DNA of 64,000 nt from Candidatus Latescibacterota bacterium (GCA_964291625.2 OZ220089.1:1440001-1504000); one strand, 5' to 3'; shown: positions 34,586-40,058, counted from the stretch's first letter. The notes: generated by a model not told the origin, from the letters alone. Numbers and translations are program-made.

Positions 34586-37000
34586 TCACTCCGTCCTGAT
34601 GACGAAGTAGGGCGTCCCGATGCGCCAGTCGGGCCAGCGGGTGGCCCGGCCATCGCCGAAGCCGAACTCGAAGAACACCATCAGGTCCCAGGCGGGATCG
34701 ATCGCCTGGCCGGGGATCACGGCGGAGTGGCCGTCGCCGGCGGGTCGCATGTCGATGCTGTCGAAGTCCAGGGCCTGATGGGCGATCCGGTGGAAGCAGC
34801 GGATGAAGCGCGGCGTGGGTGATTCGCACCGGATGTGCAGCTCCAAGTCGCGCCCGGCGGTGGCGCAGGCTGGAGGAACGAAGGCCACCTGCGGCGGATC
34901 GGGGTGGACCTCCCCGCCAGGGAAAGGCACGGGAGCCGAGGATCCGCTCTCCGGCTGTTCCGCGAGGAGCGCATCGATGGCCGCCAGGTCCCGCTCGACC
35001 ACGGCCAGGTCATCCCTCCAGTGGCCGGTGTGGCCCTTCTCCCGGAACCCGAAGACCAGATCGCCGCCGTAGGCGCCCTCGGCCGCCGAGGACAGGGCCG
35101 ACCAGTGGTCCCGCGCCTGCAGCAGGAGCTCGCGCACGTCAGGCAGCCGATGGCAGTCCCCCGCCTTGCGGTGAAAGGCGAGGTGGACCGCCGCCAGCAG
35201 GCGGCAGGCATGGTACTCCGCCAGGTGCGTGAGCAGGGTGAAGTCGAGCAGGGTGTGCCGCAGCTCCGGCTCCCCCGGATCTCCACTTAGGCCGGACAGA
35301 ATACCGCGCACCTCTGCGGCAATCCGGCGCAGGTGTCCGGCCACCTGGGGCGGCGTCCACTTGCCGCAGAGACGGCCCCCCAGGGCATCCCCCACGTATT
35401 CGTCGATGCCGTAGAACCGGGTCGGGTCGCTGGGCTCGGTGCGCGCGTCCTCCTCCAGGCCGCGGCCGGCGTAGCGCTCGGGCCAGAAGGTCCAGAGGCT
35501 GGCCGAGTGCTGCAGCACCACGGTCAGCAGGGGCAGGATCCGGCCGCCGATGCGGTAGAGTTCCTCCACCGAGGCCGCCGCTCCCCCGAAGCGATGACGC
35601 AGCTCCCGCCGCCAGACTTCGGGATCGCTGTCCGGGTCGTATCCCAGGCGGCCGAAGAGCAGGTGGAACATCCAGTGGCGCCCGTGCTCCGCGGCGGGGG
35701 ACGCGAAGGCGGGATCGGTGCTCGCCGGCCAGGGCGGCCCCTCGTCCCGGACCCCCTTGTTGGTCAGCGGCGCCATCACCTCGAAGCCGTCGCCGCCGAA
35801 GGTGCAGGACCGGGCGAAGCGACGCACCCACTCCGGATCCCCCCACAGCAGCACGCGCTGGCTGCCCGCGCTCCAGAGCCGGTGGATCAGCGGGAAGGAA
35901 CGCGGCTTTCGCAGCAGGTCCCAGGTGCCGTAGCGGCGGTAGTTGTTCCGGTCCAACCGCTGGATCGCCGGCATGGGGTAGGGCAGGCCCAGGTGCTCGC
36001 ACCAGTGCTTGGTGGAGACCATCGTCTCCGGGACGAGCTCCCGCGCCAGTCGGATGGTGTCGTCGGTCAGCCCCTTGGCGCGCAGGTCCAGGCGGACGGG
36101 CCGGCCGCACCCGGCGACGGCGCGGAACTGCGGCTCGTAGTACTCGGCTTGGCGATCCTCGGCGACGCCGGACTCGGAGTTCATGCGGAACTGGACCCCG
36201 TCGATCCCCGGACACGAGTCGAGCAGCCGCGCCAGGCCCGCGGCGTTGTACGCCGCCAGGATCTCCGGCGTGAGGCCCTCCACCATGGGGTCGCCGTAGT
36301 CGTGGGCGTGCTGGGACCAGACGCCGAAGGTGAAGTGCAGGCCCCGCCCGCGGGTGAGTCCGGCGACGCGGACCAGCATCTCCAGGTGCCGGGACCGCTC
36401 CTCGGCGGTGAAGCCGATGGGGCGGACCTGCGGGAACCCGGGAACCTCCAGCAGGAAGGGATACGGCGGCGACAGGTAGGCGATCTGGTGGCCGAAGGTG
36501 AGGCTCAGGTTGTTGTAGCGGCACCGCGCCAGCCGGCCCAGGTACTCCTCCCAGAAACCGTCGTCGTAGAACCAGGCCTCCTCGAGGCGGCGGTTGCAGA
36601 GGAAGAGCTGCATGCTGCGCCAGGCGAGCTGCGGGGACTGGACGGCGGGAGCGATGGCCGCGAAGGCATCGGCTCTCGGCGGCGCCAGCTCGACGGCGCG
36701 CGCCGCTTCGAGGAGGGCGTACGTCAGGCCACGCTCGTCCCGGCCACAGACGAGGAACCCGCCGCCGGCGAGTGGCTGGAGGACCAGGGATTCGGCCGCG
36801 GCGGGACAGCGTACCCCGCCGCGGGCGAGGCCATCCTCCACGGCCGGCGATCCACCCGCCAGGCCGATGACGAAGGCGGGACCCACGCCGGGGGCAGAGG
36901 TGATCTCGGGGGACTCCCCTCGGGCGCGAAGGACGCGTGTCAACTCGTCGAGGGCCCAGCGGGCGGCCGGGGGCAGCGCCGTGTCGACGACGAGTCTCAC
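34586..37000 (-). CDS. Large hypothetical protein, possibly carbohydrate-active (GH67/GH115-like N-terminal module)
   Basis: 804 aa; G.DERGL.YALLE motif, IDGVQFRMNSESGV, LLWGDPEWVRRF. Confidence 0.7.
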   Translation of the reverse strand: MRLVVDTALPPAARWALDELTRVLRARGESPEITSAPGVGPAFVIGLAGGSPAVEDGLARGGVRCPAAAESLVLQPLAGGGFLVCGRDERGLTYALLEAARAVELAPPRADAFAAIAPAVQSPQLAWRSMQLFLCNRRLEEAWFYDDGFWEEYLGRLARCRYNNLSLTFGHQIAYLSPPYPFLLEVPGFPQVRPIGFTAEERSRHLEMLVRVAGLTRGRGLHFTFGVWSQHAHDYGDPMVEGLTPEILAAYNAAGLARLLDSCPGIDGVQFRMNSESGVAEDRQAEYYEPQFRAVAGCGRPVRLDLRAKGLTDDTIRLARELVPETMVSTKHWCEHLGLPYPMPAIQRLDRNNYRRYGTWDLLRKPRSFPLIHRLWSAGSQRVLLWGDPEWVRRFARSCTFGGDGFEVMAPLTNKGVRDEGPPWPASTDPAFASPAAEHGRHWMFHLLFGRLGYDPDSDPEVWRRELRHRFGGAAASVEELYRIGGRILPLLTVVLQHSASLWTFWPERYAGRGLEEDARTEPSDPTRFYGIDEYVGDALGGRLCGKWTPPQVAGHLRRIAAEVRGILSGLSGDPGEPELRHTLLDFTLLTHLAEYHACRLLAAVHLAFHRKAGDCHRLPDVRELLLQARDHWSALSSAAEGAYGGDLVFGFREKGHTGHWRDDLAVVERDLAAIDALLAEQPESGSSAPVPFPGGEVHPDPPQVAFVPPACATAGRDLELHIRCESPTPRFIRCFHRIAHQALDFDSIDMRPAGDGHSAVIPGQAIDPAWDLMVFFEFGFGDGRATRWPDWRIGTPYFVIRTE

Positions 37001-37064
37001 CGGGTCGTCTGGCGAGCGCCAGACGGGGGCATCCTCGCGATGGCTCTGGATCGGGGCATGGTGG

Positions 37065-37347
37065 TCAGGAAGGACCGGCGTCCTGGTCCGTCAGATCGAG
37101 CAGAGAGGAACCGTCGTCCAGATCGACGCCGGGTTGCAGGCCTCGTCCCTTGAAGGTCTTCAAGGTGACGCGCAAACTCTTCGCCTCCTCGAAGTGGCGG
37201 ATCGCCGTCTCGAACTTGTCCCGGCACCCGGGATTGCAGAGCACCGACGACCTGGCCGTCGAACTCGGTCAGCGAGTCGGCCTGCACCGGCTTGCCCGAC
37301 CACGGGCAGGTCTCGTTGATGCAATCGGCAATGTCGAGAGCGGGCAT
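37065..37347 (-). pseudogene. Frameshifted YHS/TRASH-like small protein fused to a vapB 3' remnant
   Basis: INETCPWSGKPV...VVG then a +1 shift to LCNPGCRDKF..., continuing as RVTLKTFKGRGLQPGVDLDDGSSLLDL..GPS*. Confidence 0.75.
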
Positions 37348-37384
37348 GGTGTCTCCCCGTAGACTCGTGCAGCGGTCGAGCACC

Positions 37385-38113
37385 CTACTGCGGCGATACC
37401 CGGCTGGTCAACTGCTCCTTCGCGGCCTCGTAGCGCAGGCCCATGGACTCCAGTACCCGCGCCGCGGCTGCATCCGAATCCCTGAGCAGGCCGAGCAGGA
37501 AGTGCTCGCACTGGACGGCCCCCGCACCGGACCCCCTCGCCTCGGCTGCGGCGGACTGGACAACCCTCCTGGCGGTTGGTCCGAACAAGCTCTGCAACTG
37601 GGACGGCCTGGAATCGGCCGGCCCTTCGCTGGCCTGCGAGCTTCCTGCGGACACGGTATTCTCGGCCCTGCGCCGGACCTCGTCGGGCGTGACCCCTAGT
37701 CTCTCCAGTATGGGGCCGGCAACGGGACACATCTCCTCTCCCGCCACGGCGAGCAGCAGGTGTCCGGAGCCCACTTCCCGCTCTCCTCGACGAGCGGCTT
37801 CCGTGCACGCCAACTCGAGGATCTTCCGGATCGAGTCGGCAAAGACCAGCTCATCCGCCTTCTCATCGACCGAGGCCATCATTTTCGGCCAGCTCTCGAA
37901 GCCGTAGTCCCGGGCCAGCGTGAACTGCGCCTCCTGCACGGTGATGCCGGCGTGCCAGCCGCGGCCGTCGCGAGGTTGCCCGGCCAGGCGCGGAAGGTGA
38001 GCGCGCAGCAGCCGGATGGCGGACACCCGGCCGGTGCGGCAGGCTCTCTGCAGCCGCCGCGCCTCTTTCCTGAGGTGCTCCGCGCTTGGACGACGTGGAA
38101 GGGAACGGGACAT
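37385..38113 (-). CDS. Clp N-terminal (Clp_N) domain protein with an N-terminal LPxRPx.EHLRKEA...AQ..LAR.YGF.SW module
   Basis: Two Clp_N repeats (EAARRG..EVGSGHLLLA and EARG.G..AVQCEHFLLGLL); no AAA+ domain; GAGG Shine-Dalgarno. Confidence 0.85.
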   Translation of the reverse strand: MSRSLPRRPSAEHLRKEARRLQRACRTGRVSAIRLLRAHLPRLAGQPRDGRGWHAGITVQEAQFTLARDYGFESWPKMMASVDEKADELVFADSIRKILELACTEAARRGEREVGSGHLLLAVAGEEMCPVAGPILERLGVTPDEVRRRAENTVSAGSSQASEGPADSRPSQLQSLFGPTARRVVQSAAAEARGSGAGAVQCEHFLLGLLRDSDAAAARVLESMGLRYEAAKEQLTSRVSPQ

Positions 38114-38246
38114 GCCTGACCTCTTTCCGAAGCGCCGGGGGGTTCGCCAAGGCCGGCAGAAAGAAGGTCGATGGGTACCGCGAGGCGGGGTGGGCTTGGC
38201 CCTGACCGCGAACGTGGGCGCTCCCCCGGGGAGCACTGTTTCGGAA
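38114..38246 (-). promoter_or_regulatory. Candidate structured cis-regulatory leader RNA (translational switch)
   Basis: Mutually exclusive pairings around the RBS; see the corresponding finding. Confidence 0.6.
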
Positions 38247-38343
38247 GGTACCCCGGCTCGAGGTCTGCGGTCAACGCGAAGCCGCTGGCCGGGCTGCTCC
38301 TGGATGACGGACAAGGGGGTTTTCCGTTCATTCAGGACCGGCC

Positions 38344-39315
38344 ATGCAAGCGTCGGGAAGCAGAGAGTCGGGAGTGTACCTGGCACAAGGGATCTCCGCG
38401 AGCGATCCCGATCGGCACATCCGAGCCGCCGCTCTCACCGCCATCGAACGGCTCTCCCGCCAACACGGGGGCAGAGTCCAATGGGCGGACATCCACAAGG
38501 GATTCCACGCCGGAGGTGAGAGGGTCCACTTCGCCAACCGTGCGAAAGGCATCTTCAAACCGAGACAGATGAGCGCCGCCCTCAGCATCAAGACAGTCGT
38601 CCCCCGGTCCGGCCGCGGAGTCTGGTACCGCGACCAGGCCCTTGCGGCCCGGAGCGATCACGCAACCGGCCTTCTGCGCTACGATCTCGCCCGCGGCGGA
38701 CCCGGGGAGTCGACCAACCGATCTCTGAGGATGGCGAAAGAGCGCGGCGCTCCGCTCATCTACTTCGCCGGTCTCTCACCGTCTGTGTATCAGCCGGTGT
38801 TCCCCATCTGGGTCGAAGAGTTCCGCGAGAGCGAGGTCCTGCTCGCTACTGCGGACAACGTGGACTCGGCGGCGAGTTTCGCACACGAGGGACCCGAACG
38901 GTCCTACTCACTTACGACGGCCCAGTCCAGGAACCATCAGGCGTGGTTCAGCGCCCGCACCAAGGCCGCATACGGGTATCAGTGCGCTTTCAGTGGCCTT
39001 CCGGTGCGTGAACTGTTGGTGGGGGCCCACATCATTCCCGACGCCGACGGCGGTCCTCCTTCCGTGAGGAACGGGATCTGCATGTCCACCCTTCACCATA
39101 CAGCCTTCGACACGCACTTGATCGGGGTTGATCCCGACTTCCGGATCCACGTATCGCCGCCCCTCCAGGAACGCAGGGACGGCGACTTGCTCACCACCCT
39201 CAAGGGTCTCGAGGGAACCCGTCTCCGCCTGCCTTCCGACCGGGAGGACTGGCCGAAGGCCGCTTTCCTGGAGCAGCGGTTCTCTCGATTCCTCTCCCAG
39301 GCATCTCCCCCATGA
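38344..39315 (+). CDS. HNH endonuclease (HNH_2, putative restriction endonuclease)
   Basis: YGYQCAFSGLP...AHIIPD...NGICMSTLHHTAFD. The start may be GTG 38374. Confidence 0.88.
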   Translation: MQASGSRESGVYLAQGISASDPDRHIRAAALTAIERLSRQHGGRVQWADIHKGFHAGGERVHFANRAKGIFKPRQMSAALSIKTVVPRSGRGVWYRDQALAARSDHATGLLRYDLARGGPGESTNRSLRMAKERGAPLIYFAGLSPSVYQPVFPIWVEEFRESEVLLATADNVDSAASFAHEGPERSYSLTTAQSRNHQAWFSARTKAAYGYQCAFSGLPVRELLVGAHIIPDADGGPPSVRNGICMSTLHHTAFDTHLIGVDPDFRIHVSPPLQERRDGDLLTTLKGLEGTRLRLPSDREDWPKAAFLEQRFSRFLSQASPP

Positions 39316-40058
39316 CCAATTCAGCAACAGGCGACAGCGTCGTCATCCTCTTCAAGGGCGGGCGCCTGCCCACGTGGCACCTGCTCAGCGAAGCCCAGCA
39401 GGCCGACTACGAGCGCCAGCACGTGGACCTGATGCTCTCGGTCTCTGAGCGGCACGGCCTGATGGGGCTGCACGGGTACCGCCTGCTGGCCCCGCTGGGC
39501 GACTGGGTGCGGTTCTGGACGGTCGAGTTCCCGGGCCTGGCCGGCGCCGAGGCCTGGATGGAGGCGGAGGTCGAGCCACCCTACGGGCGCTACGGCTTCC
39601 ACGACTACTCCCTCGCCCGGCGCTGGCAGCCGGAGAGCCTGTCCTGGCTGCCCCGCCGGCCCGAGCCCCCCGTCCCGCCGGACGCCGATGCGCACGTGAT
39701 CGCGCCCCTGTCCGCCGACCCGTCCTCGGTCGTCGTCCTCGCCTTCGGTGGCTGGCGGCGCGGCTCCGACGAGGTCGACCCGCGAACCCGGGGGGACGAG
39801 GAGCGCCGAGAGCGGCTGCGGGAGGTGGCCGGCGAGCACGGCCTCCTGCACGGGGAGGTCTTCCGCCTCCTCGGGACCGCCGACGAGGGCGCGCTGGTCT
39901 GGATCCTCGAGTTTCCCGAGCTGGCCGGCGCCGAGGCCTGGATCGAGGCGGAGGCCGAGCCGCCCGCCGGGGCCTACCAGGAGCGCCGCTTCCACCTGGC
40001 CCGGCGGTGGGCGCCGGAGTACTTCGTCACTTGGCCTCCGCGAAAGTCGGGCGGCTGA
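39312..40058 (+). CDS. Hypothetical protein with an internally duplicated domain
   Basis: W.VEFPGLAGAEAWMEAE.EPP.G.Y....LARRW.PE occurs twice. Confidence 0.75.
   Translation: MTNSATGDSVVILFKGGRLPTWHLLSEAQQADYERQHVDLMLSVSERHGLMGLHGYRLLAPLGDWVRFWTVEFPGLAGAEAWMEAEVEPPYGRYGFHDYSLARRWQPESLSWLPRRPEPPVPPDADAHVIAPLSADPSSVVVLAFGGWRRGSDEVDPRTRGDEERRERLREVAGEHGLLHGEVFRLLGTADEGALVWILEFPELAGAEAWIEAEAEPPAGAYQERRFHLARRWAPEYFVTWPPRKSGG

Follow-up and report, generated by a model that had tools for sequence, protein, structure and literature searches.

Within a 64,000-nucleotide (nt) stretch of DNA from Candidatus Latescibacterota bacterium (GCA_964291625.2 OZ220089.1:1440001-1504000), which was analyzed as a whole and is referred to here as the window, we examined a minus-strand gene at positions 38113-37385 together with the RNA leader directly in front of it. 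The gene runs from a start codon at 38113-38111 to a stop codon at 37387-37385 and encodes a protein of 242 amino acids consisting of two parts. The first part is an N-terminal module (residues 1-85; 37859-38113, including the start codon), which is basic (net charge +10, isoelectric point (pI) 11.6) and all-helical in an AlphaFold model. The second part (about residues 93-239; 37397-37837) is a Clp_N domain, identified by a match in two stretches, corresponding to two repeats, to PF02861 (65.2 bits with a cut-off of 20.7; E 6e-18). A Pfam scan of the 242-amino acid protein found no family besides Clp_N, and residues ~1-85 match none. NCBIfam models of ClpA/B/G/K match the N-domains alone, with 19-30 bits against cut-offs of 885-1900, and the AAA+ nucleotide-binding module of the Clp/Hsp100 ATPases (ClpA/B/C/G/K/V) was not found in the protein. 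Because Clp_N is the sole Pfam match and the NCBIfam Clp models match N-domain parts far below their cut-offs, the protein is a Clp_N protein without ATPase, as had been proposed in the first-pass annotation of this DNA. It resembles stand-alone Clp_N proteins in its two PF02861 repeats and differs from them in that, lacking AAA+, it carries the 85-residue basic module in front.

The leader spans about 130 nt (38239-38108, minus strand) and contains four helices: P0, P2, P3 and a 6-bp pseudoknot a:a'. P0 (38220-38234) is a hairpin, probably 5'-terminal, of GCUCC-CCGGG-GGAGC, with a G-rich loop end. Strand a, GUUCGC (38208-38213), is the 5' strand of the pseudoknot and is followed by P2, a GGGC-CAA-GCCC hairpin (38192-38202) with a conserved ACC behind it. 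A linker between P2 and P3 (38170-38191) is conserved neither in sequence nor in length within the RNA family described below. The 5' arm of P3 (38153-38169) is made up of strand b, complementary to the Shine-Dalgarno (SD) sequence (GACCUUCUUUC, 38169-38159), a bulged U, and strand c (GCCGG, 38157-38153). In the 3' arm (38118-38138), strand c' (CCGGC, 38138-38134) is followed by strand b' (GAAAGAGGUC, 38127-38118), which contains the SD. P3 is a 16-bp stem that buries the SD 5-9 nt 5' of the start codon, and its 14-nt loop holds strand a', GCGAAC (38142-38147), the partner of strand a. Upstream of the leader, we infer a -35 box, TTGACC (38269-38274, minus strand), and, 18 nt after it, a -10 box, TACCTT (38245-38250), whose position would place the transcription start near 38240-38236; a promoter and terminator consensus scan reported nothing at the leader. 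Contigs of metatranscriptome run X5 cover 38153-38354 and 37473-38034 and show neither ends, strand nor level; the first extends past the inferred promoter, which could reflect DNA carry-over or read-through. The SD-sequestering stem is present in the minimum-energy fold of the window sequence. Its folding energy corresponds to z-scores of -0.66 (161 nt) and -0.71 (76 nt), and in each case 49 of 200 shuffled sequences folded as well or better. Within one sequence the pairings are therefore not beyond chance, and the support for them is comparative.

Close relatives were compared first at the level of orthologues. The gene is present in 6 of 76 genomes of the order, including the window genome; most of these belong to the window's genus, and the genomes with an orthologue are records labelled Gemmatimonadaceae. 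The proteins of five orthologues are 61-85% identical, yet the approximately 140 nt 5' of the ATG differ very little (mean column identity 90%). This homology stops just 5' of the TTGACC...TACCTT pair, of which TTGACC or TTGATC is kept in the window, L005, L006, L007 and L008, and the -10 box reads TATATT in L007. Among the orthologues, indels of 1-2 nt within GCUCCCCGGGGGAGC, in the P0 region, preserve the hairpin, which excludes a coding function for this segment. Two orthologous loci carry damaged genes. L008, identical to L383 (G075:C1:4664250-4664700), has kept the leader (88.9 bits), and its gene lacks about residues 10-126 and has a changed frame; it also has the sole C.A mismatch in the pseudoknot among the orthologues. 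L007 (G015:C1:855602-856126) has an in-frame TGA, only residues 1-178 are matched, and its pseudoknot contains a U.G intermediate.

A sequence profile of the leader gave weak matches just 5' of module genes in L014 (record labelled Thermodesulfobacteriota), L013 (labelled Hyphomonadaceae) and L002, the sole paralogue in the window genome. These three share GUYCGC, GG.MA, a GGGC-NNA-GCCC hairpin, a pyrimidine-type anti-SD strand, GCCSG, GCGRAC, CSGGC and the SD. With R1, a covariance model of the six close sequences, L014 reached 34.7 bits and L013 28.4 bits; a second model (R2) was built from 75 sequences. The window sequence from strand a through ATG+3 (38108-38215, minus strand) scores 132.4 bits with R1 and 88.6 bits (E 1.8e-18) with R2, and covariance-model matches in distant phyla reach 40-89 bits. 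A first sequence pattern, CGCGGTCAGGGCNNAGCCCA, was scanned against genome and metagenome contigs and discarded as unspecific, as it returned mostly chance matches in GC-rich DNA, including coding-strand matches in restriction-enzyme-like genes. The pattern GTCCGCRGNNAGGGCNNAGCCCRCN{30,60}GCGGAC gave at least 120 matches on genome contigs and none on viral contigs. Among the matches listed, the record labels cover about nine phyla (Actinomycetota, Acidobacteriota, Gemmatimonadota, Alphaproteobacteria, Verrucomicrobiota, Armatimonadota, Planctomycetota, Chloroflexota and myxobacteria/"delta proteobacterium") and include cultured actinomycetes; about 35 core nucleotides are nearly invariant across them. 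A search of Rfam 15 (4227 models, E<=10) with window 36500-39500, window 38090-38260, loci L001, L002, L013 and L014, and L261 1570-1730 returned chance-level rows alone (11-28 bits, unrelated families), none of which matches the strand and place of the leader; the RNA had likewise not been recognized as a named riboswitch in the first-pass annotation. A search of full-text literature, which leaves aside supplementary files where such a motif could be listed, found no description of the leader RNA or of the module. The leader belongs to a large family of RNAs that Rfam 15 does not contain, and we regard it as virtually certain that it is a real conserved structured RNA.

The structure was evaluated on an R2 alignment of 84 sequences, to which the pseudoknot, not part of the model, was added before pairs were counted. 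For P2 and P3 this alignment was fitted to the model, and 53 of its 84 rows derive from the pattern that fixed a and a'. Of 2052 cells, 94.7% were paired compared to 85.3 ± 0.4% after shuffling, and none of 500 shuffles reached the observed value. When partners were slid relative to each other, pairing dropped to 31-50%. Changes on both sides occur in 18 of 25 pairs, distributed as 10/10 in b:b', 4/5 in c:c', 3/4 in P2 and 1/6 in the pseudoknot. The hairpin of b:b' and c:c', drawn in the first-pass annotation as the OFF fold, is therefore real, and the leader is both conserved and covarying among homologues. P2 occurs as GGGU/ACCC, GGCC/GGCC, GGAC/GUCC and AGGC/GCCU, with 100% of cells paired. 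The pseudoknot hexamers are almost invariant, with GUCCGC:GCGGAC as family consensus, and the sole compensatory event in a:a' is a change from C-G to U-A in the window clade, where U.G is found in L007 and C.A in L008/L383. RNAalifold, run on an independent MAFFT alignment, recovered a:a' in 35 of 35 sequences; in this helix the P3 loop pairs with strand a, which lies between P0 and P2.

P0 could be formed with at least 4 bp in 108 of 112 distinct upstream segments (mean of 62.3 when shuffled) and with at least 5 bp in 69 (30.8 when shuffled), involving 65 distinct stems with GG at the loop end in 84 of the 108. An A/T-rich signal found throughout the family, 26-30 nt 5' of where the model starts, coincides with TACCTT in the window, suggesting that P0 is probably the 5'-terminal hairpin. 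For P3, the arm duplex has a mean energy of -23.6 kcal/mol with its own partner, compared to -12.5 kcal/mol for shuffled and -18.2 kcal/mol for non-self partners, and the own partner was better than the shuffled one in 110 of 111 members. The linker between P2 and P3 has a median length of 28 nt with the boundaries used here; its own fold is no better than that of shuffled sequences (mean z 0.12), and a linker hairpin was discarded on this basis. The folding energy z-score of the whole element averages -0.96. The ATG of the model coincides with the start codon in 114 of 146 cases. Over the first 20 codons, synonymous sites are free to change, indicating that the conservation of these codons is at the protein level alone and that the element ends at the start codon.

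The first-pass annotation had combined the OFF hairpin with an alternative fold, in which three upstream segments pair with the 3' arm of P3 and free the SD. All segments named there were found at their places on the minus strand, not only GACCUUCUUUC, GAAAGAGGUC, GCCGG and CCGGC of the hairpin but also UUCCGAA (38246-38240), AGCGCC (38222-38217) and GUUCGC (38213-38208) with their proposed partners UUCGGAA (38131-38125), GGCGCU (38136-38131) and GCGAAC (38147-38142). Of this fold, the GUUCGC:GCGAAC helix stands; the competition does not, nor are the UUCCGAA and AGCGCC helices conserved. Since GCGAAC is part of the OFF hairpin's loop, with no nucleotide in common with the stems, its helix with GUUCGC is a pseudoknot coexisting with the OFF fold rather than a competitor of it. 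AGCGCC turned out to be the 3' strand of the conserved hairpin P0, and UUCCGAA overlaps the inferred -10 box and differs in the orthologues (UUGAGAA in L005 and L006, UUUAGAA in L007).

Other pairings that could compete with P3 were searched for among the family members. Between the 3' arm and the 60 nt upstream, no pairing signal was seen in 111 members (-21.3 kcal/mol compared to -20.9 for shuffled and -20.5 for non-self partners; better than shuffled in 59 of 111), and this pairing was rejected. The 3' arm against the linker or the coding sequence, and the 5' arm against the upstream 60 nt, paired no better than the shuffled or non-self controls, and no pairing signal was detected between the core and the coding sequence, where synonymous sites are free. 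A contact between the P0 loop and c' was dropped since no covariation was found (20 identical observed, 18.1 expected). A helix between the core segment GCGGNNAGGG and the anti-SD strand was considered as an ON state and rejected as well, as at least 8 contiguous bp are possible in 49 of 114 members and the helix is not family-wide: it is broken by verrucomicrobial-type arms and found in 1 of 26 members with junction types GC/AC/TC/TA, among which is the window (UC). The SD string GGAAAGAGG is repeated within codons 14-18 of the window gene (38060-38074, minus strand; CUC AGG AAA GAG GCG, encoding L-R-K-E-A). The codons used in this repeat are rare in G+C-rich genomes. As an alternative partner of the anti-SD strand this string was rejected, because the 5' arm against the coding sequence gave no signal (56/111 and 54/111), and the repeat is probably a by-product of the K-E-A motif. 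A conserved alternative pairing competing with the SD-sequestering stem was thus not found across the family.

The RNA is tightly linked to the genes encoding the module. Among the pattern matches listed, 117 of 120 have the module within 700 nt 3' of the leader, and two of the three misses lie at locus ends; for 148 of 156 non-redundant RNA matches the module was found within 2.4 kb. As an unbiased sample, 121 Gemmatimonadota genomes were analyzed. The RNA is present in 40 of them (123 matches, 1-11 per genome) and the module in 43 (146 matches); a module match follows 106 of the 123 RNA matches, within 28 nt in 96 cases, and the RNA stands upstream of 112 of the 146 module matches. The 5.9-Mb genome of the window contains exactly two strong RNA matches and two module genes, paired one to one. 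Five genomes labelled Streptomyces, Caulobacter, Sorangium, Isosphaeraceae and Acidobacteriaceae contain 8 RNA and 7 module matches, and all seven modules stand directly behind an RNA. Most RNA matches without a module are followed by remnants of its first ~10-35 residues and then by stops or frameshifts. No other recurrent gene family was found among 2474 open reading frames (ORFs) of the neighbourhoods, in which the sole large real cluster is the module gene itself (109 loci), indicating that the leader-module unit is self-contained. The leader and the module are genetically coupled, and a structured SD-sequestering leader is here tied to a promiscuous protein module instead of a pathway.

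Two variants of this arrangement were observed. In the second copy of the window genome (L002/L376, G000:C1:3916629-3917081), a 28-codon upstream ORF with a TTG start lies after the SD of the leader and before a module-ankyrin gene; its TGA overlaps the ATG of that gene (TGATG), an arrangement that would suit translational coupling. Some ORFs contain two tandem modules behind one leader (G004:C111:1595-2098, G021:C59:3211-3738 and G029:C258:7829-8359).

The module was found in 2095 clusters at 50% identity (E<=1e-3) and is almost always N-terminal. The first-pass annotation had named fusions to ankyrin and glyoxalase-like domains, and both were seen, together with Clp_N and many others. Among the 79 top relatives, the fusion partners are ankyrin (28), Clp_N (10, one of which is also counted under ankyrin), FliG_C (8), FliM (3), FliG_N (2), sigma-54 AAA+ (2), and receiver, BFN, Lon-N, KH and methyltransferase domains (one each), and 22 have no Pfam family. 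In 85 leader-linked ORFs the partners are ankyrin (60), Lon-N (3, one of which also has the C-terminal domain of RNA polymerase alpha), FliG_C (2), sigma-54 AAA+ (2), FliM (1), glyoxalase (1), AhpC/TSA (1) and leucine-rich repeats (1), with no family in 14. The module is generally basic, with a median net charge of +4 and a pI above 9 in 73 of 90 cases, and the remainder of the same proteins is acidic (-2.3 per 85 amino acids). The AlphaFold model consists of six helices (mean predicted local distance difference test score 86.9, predicted template modelling score 0.74). A PDB sequence search with the module profile returned designed helical repeats and a weak PhyR-like stretch alone, and ESM Atlas returned unnamed clusters alone. 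The module has no Pfam family of its own: the module of the window gives no match to Glyoxalase_8 (PF20066, cut-off 23.7 bits), and positions 5-55 of this family give sub-threshold matches in 6 of 26 module relatives, the best with 21.7 bits. PF20066 seems to include, within its first ~55 positions, a shortened version of the module, which could be set apart as a family in its own right.

Taken together, we consider the leader to be a cis-acting element that controls translation initiation (probability about 0.85). The conserved fold, in which the pseudoknot docks P3 onto a nearly invariant core of P0 and P2, with strand a between them and the variable linker following, would represent the OFF state with the SD buried in P3, and binding of an effector to this core may set how tightly P3 is locked. 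The effector we favour, at a little under even odds, is the module itself, and this autogenous control is preferred over sensing of a metabolite because of the strict and self-contained coupling, the obligatory N-terminal place of the module next to the leader and its basic charge. In taxon after taxon, with exceptions, the gene of the presumed binding protein has the leader in front of it, as is the case for autogenous leaders. Free module-bearing protein would bind the core and the pseudoknot and repress the translation of its own mRNA and of those of its paralogues, and module and leader together would form a portable feedback cassette in front of varied protein-binding domains, in the window Clp_N. 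A further step, which we hold to be rather doubtful, is that the module recognizes the invariant core and, as long as the protein is free, stops its synthesis, and that repression is relieved when the C-terminal domain (ankyrin, Clp_N, FliG/FliM-like, sigma-54 AAA+, Lon-N, glyoxalase or others) engages its target. If so, the cassette would have repeatedly been placed before binding domains to hold the free pool constant, and paralogues, up to 11 per genome, would cross-regulate via the shared core.

Several observations weigh against autogenous translational control. The RNA core is almost invariant across phyla whereas the module is only ~35-50% identical, a pattern explained more easily by an invariant ligand than by a co-evolving protein. 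Comparison of the module model with solved structures gave no clear relative (best E 1.5 with Foldseek, best Z 4.2 with VIA), and thus no known RNA-binding fold was recognized in it. In the Gemmatimonadota sample, 34 of 146 module matches have no RNA upstream. Conversely, intact-looking leaders stand before module-less genes in L415 (FliG_C-like), L416 (ankyrin) and L412 (FliG-like), the last of which has 13 module residues left, fused to a FliG_N-like protein, and genomes G154 (88% complete) and G008 (91% complete) have RNA matches and no module at E<=0.01. The folding energy of the window copy is, as described, not better than that of shuffled sequences. Finally, the search for a conserved alternative ON fold came up empty, and with a P3 as stable as this the model does not account for how translation would ever be allowed.

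A metabolite- or ion-sensing riboswitch, with the core of P0, a, P2 and a' as aptamer and P3 as expression platform, is possible, if clearly less probable than not. The level of the module would then follow the ligand, or the module would bind the ligand too. The leader does have features of this kind of RNA, namely a conserved, covarying, aptamer-like structure in the 5' untranslated region and an expression platform that overlaps the SD or start codon, in this case P3. The ~35 nearly invariant core nucleotides in records labelled as about nine phyla, the multi-helix pseudoknotted core with its conserved junction and loop nucleotides, the variable linker between two sub-domains with the SD in the adjoining stem, the 1-11 copies per genome, and the persistence of leaders before module-less genes and in genomes without a detectable module are all in line with a riboswitch. 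However, it is one protein module that accompanies the RNA rather than transporters or pathway enzymes, no conserved neighbour gene hints at a ligand, and no conserved ligand-free alternative fold was found. We consider it unlikely that the leader has no dedicated ligand or acts via a general cell factor, as a constitutive attenuator, ribosome standby site, thermosensor, RNase- or helicase-dependent activation site or mRNA stability element. Such a role would fit the single conserved fold that is detectable, without a conserved ON-state helix, and the high stability of P3 (the arm duplex energy given above); for a simple attenuator or thermometer, nevertheless, a pseudoknotted core kept nearly invariant, with its P0 loop and P2 conserved, would not be required, and the genome-wide restriction to module genes would not be explained.

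The absence of a conserved competing helix and the coexistence of the pseudoknot with the OFF fold also mean that the two-state switch as first drawn fails, and we regard it as very improbable. Complementary segments do exist in the window, and the different upstream segment with core GCGGNNAGGG could form a helix with the anti-SD arm in part of the family. Against this, two of the three segments drawn are not conserved, one of them lying in the inferred promoter, the third does not compete with the stem, the upstream 60 nt give no signal with the 3' arm, and the junction types that include the window almost completely lack the core:anti-SD helix. Chance complementarity or a coding extension of the gene would agree with the unremarkable folding-energy z-scores and with the reading frame upstream of the gene, which is open in frame; this explanation is practically negligible in view of the 1-2 nt indels of P0 between orthologues, the covariation and the model matches in distant phyla.

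Autogenous control by the module, the favoured reading, has its closest parallel in the E. coli rpsO (S15) leader and other autoregulatory ribosomal-protein leaders. These are likewise pseudoknotted 5' leaders by the SD or start codon, directly before the gene of the presumed binding protein, and the logic would be the same, feedback by free protein. In contrast to them, the presumed partner is a promiscuous N-terminal module on many unrelated domains, no mimicry of an rRNA site was seen, conservation across phyla is much stronger in the RNA core than in the protein, and no Rfam leader family matches. With pseudoknotted translational riboswitches (ZTP/pfl, and the SD-occluding preQ1-II and SAM-II), the leader shares a conserved pseudoknotted core, a variable linker, a distal hairpin that provides a pseudoknot strand, and control of SD access; it differs in having the SD in a long stem and not in the pseudoknot, in being tied to one module and not to a metabolic pathway, and in matching no Rfam family at E<=10. 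Orphan motifs of the yjdF type are similar in being structured leaders almost exclusive to one protein family of unknown function, whereas the leader described here is tied to an N-terminal domain of otherwise unrelated proteins, in about nine phyla and with up to 11 copies per genome. Leader RNAs that are both widespread and deeply conserved and whose effector is unknown are seldom met with, and time and again they have pointed the way to new signalling molecules or gene-control logic; this one is multi-copy in many genomes and unusual in its tie to a protein module rather than a pathway. A protein effector would mean a new RNA-binding domain and a modular feedback device useful in synthetic biology; a small-molecule effector would mean a new riboswitch class and the first functional handle on a module of at least 2095 protein clusters. 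The leader RNA also offers a testable route to what the many bacterial module-ankyrin fusion proteins do.

Two neighbours of the module-Clp_N gene were also annotated. The divergent neighbour (38344-39315, plus strand) encodes a 323-amino acid HNH_2 endonuclease-like protein (PF13391, E 1.9e-11) and is present in L005 and absent in L004. Just 3' of the module-Clp_N gene lies a small Cys-rich gene (MPALDIADCINETCPWSGKPV...; 37065-37347, minus strand) that is split over two frames, neither piece of which matches a family in a Pfam scan. The orthologue in L383 is a single uninterrupted frame (...VVGFCNPGCRDQFEAAIRHF...), suggesting a one-base indel in the window copy, due either to a pseudogene or to an assembly error.

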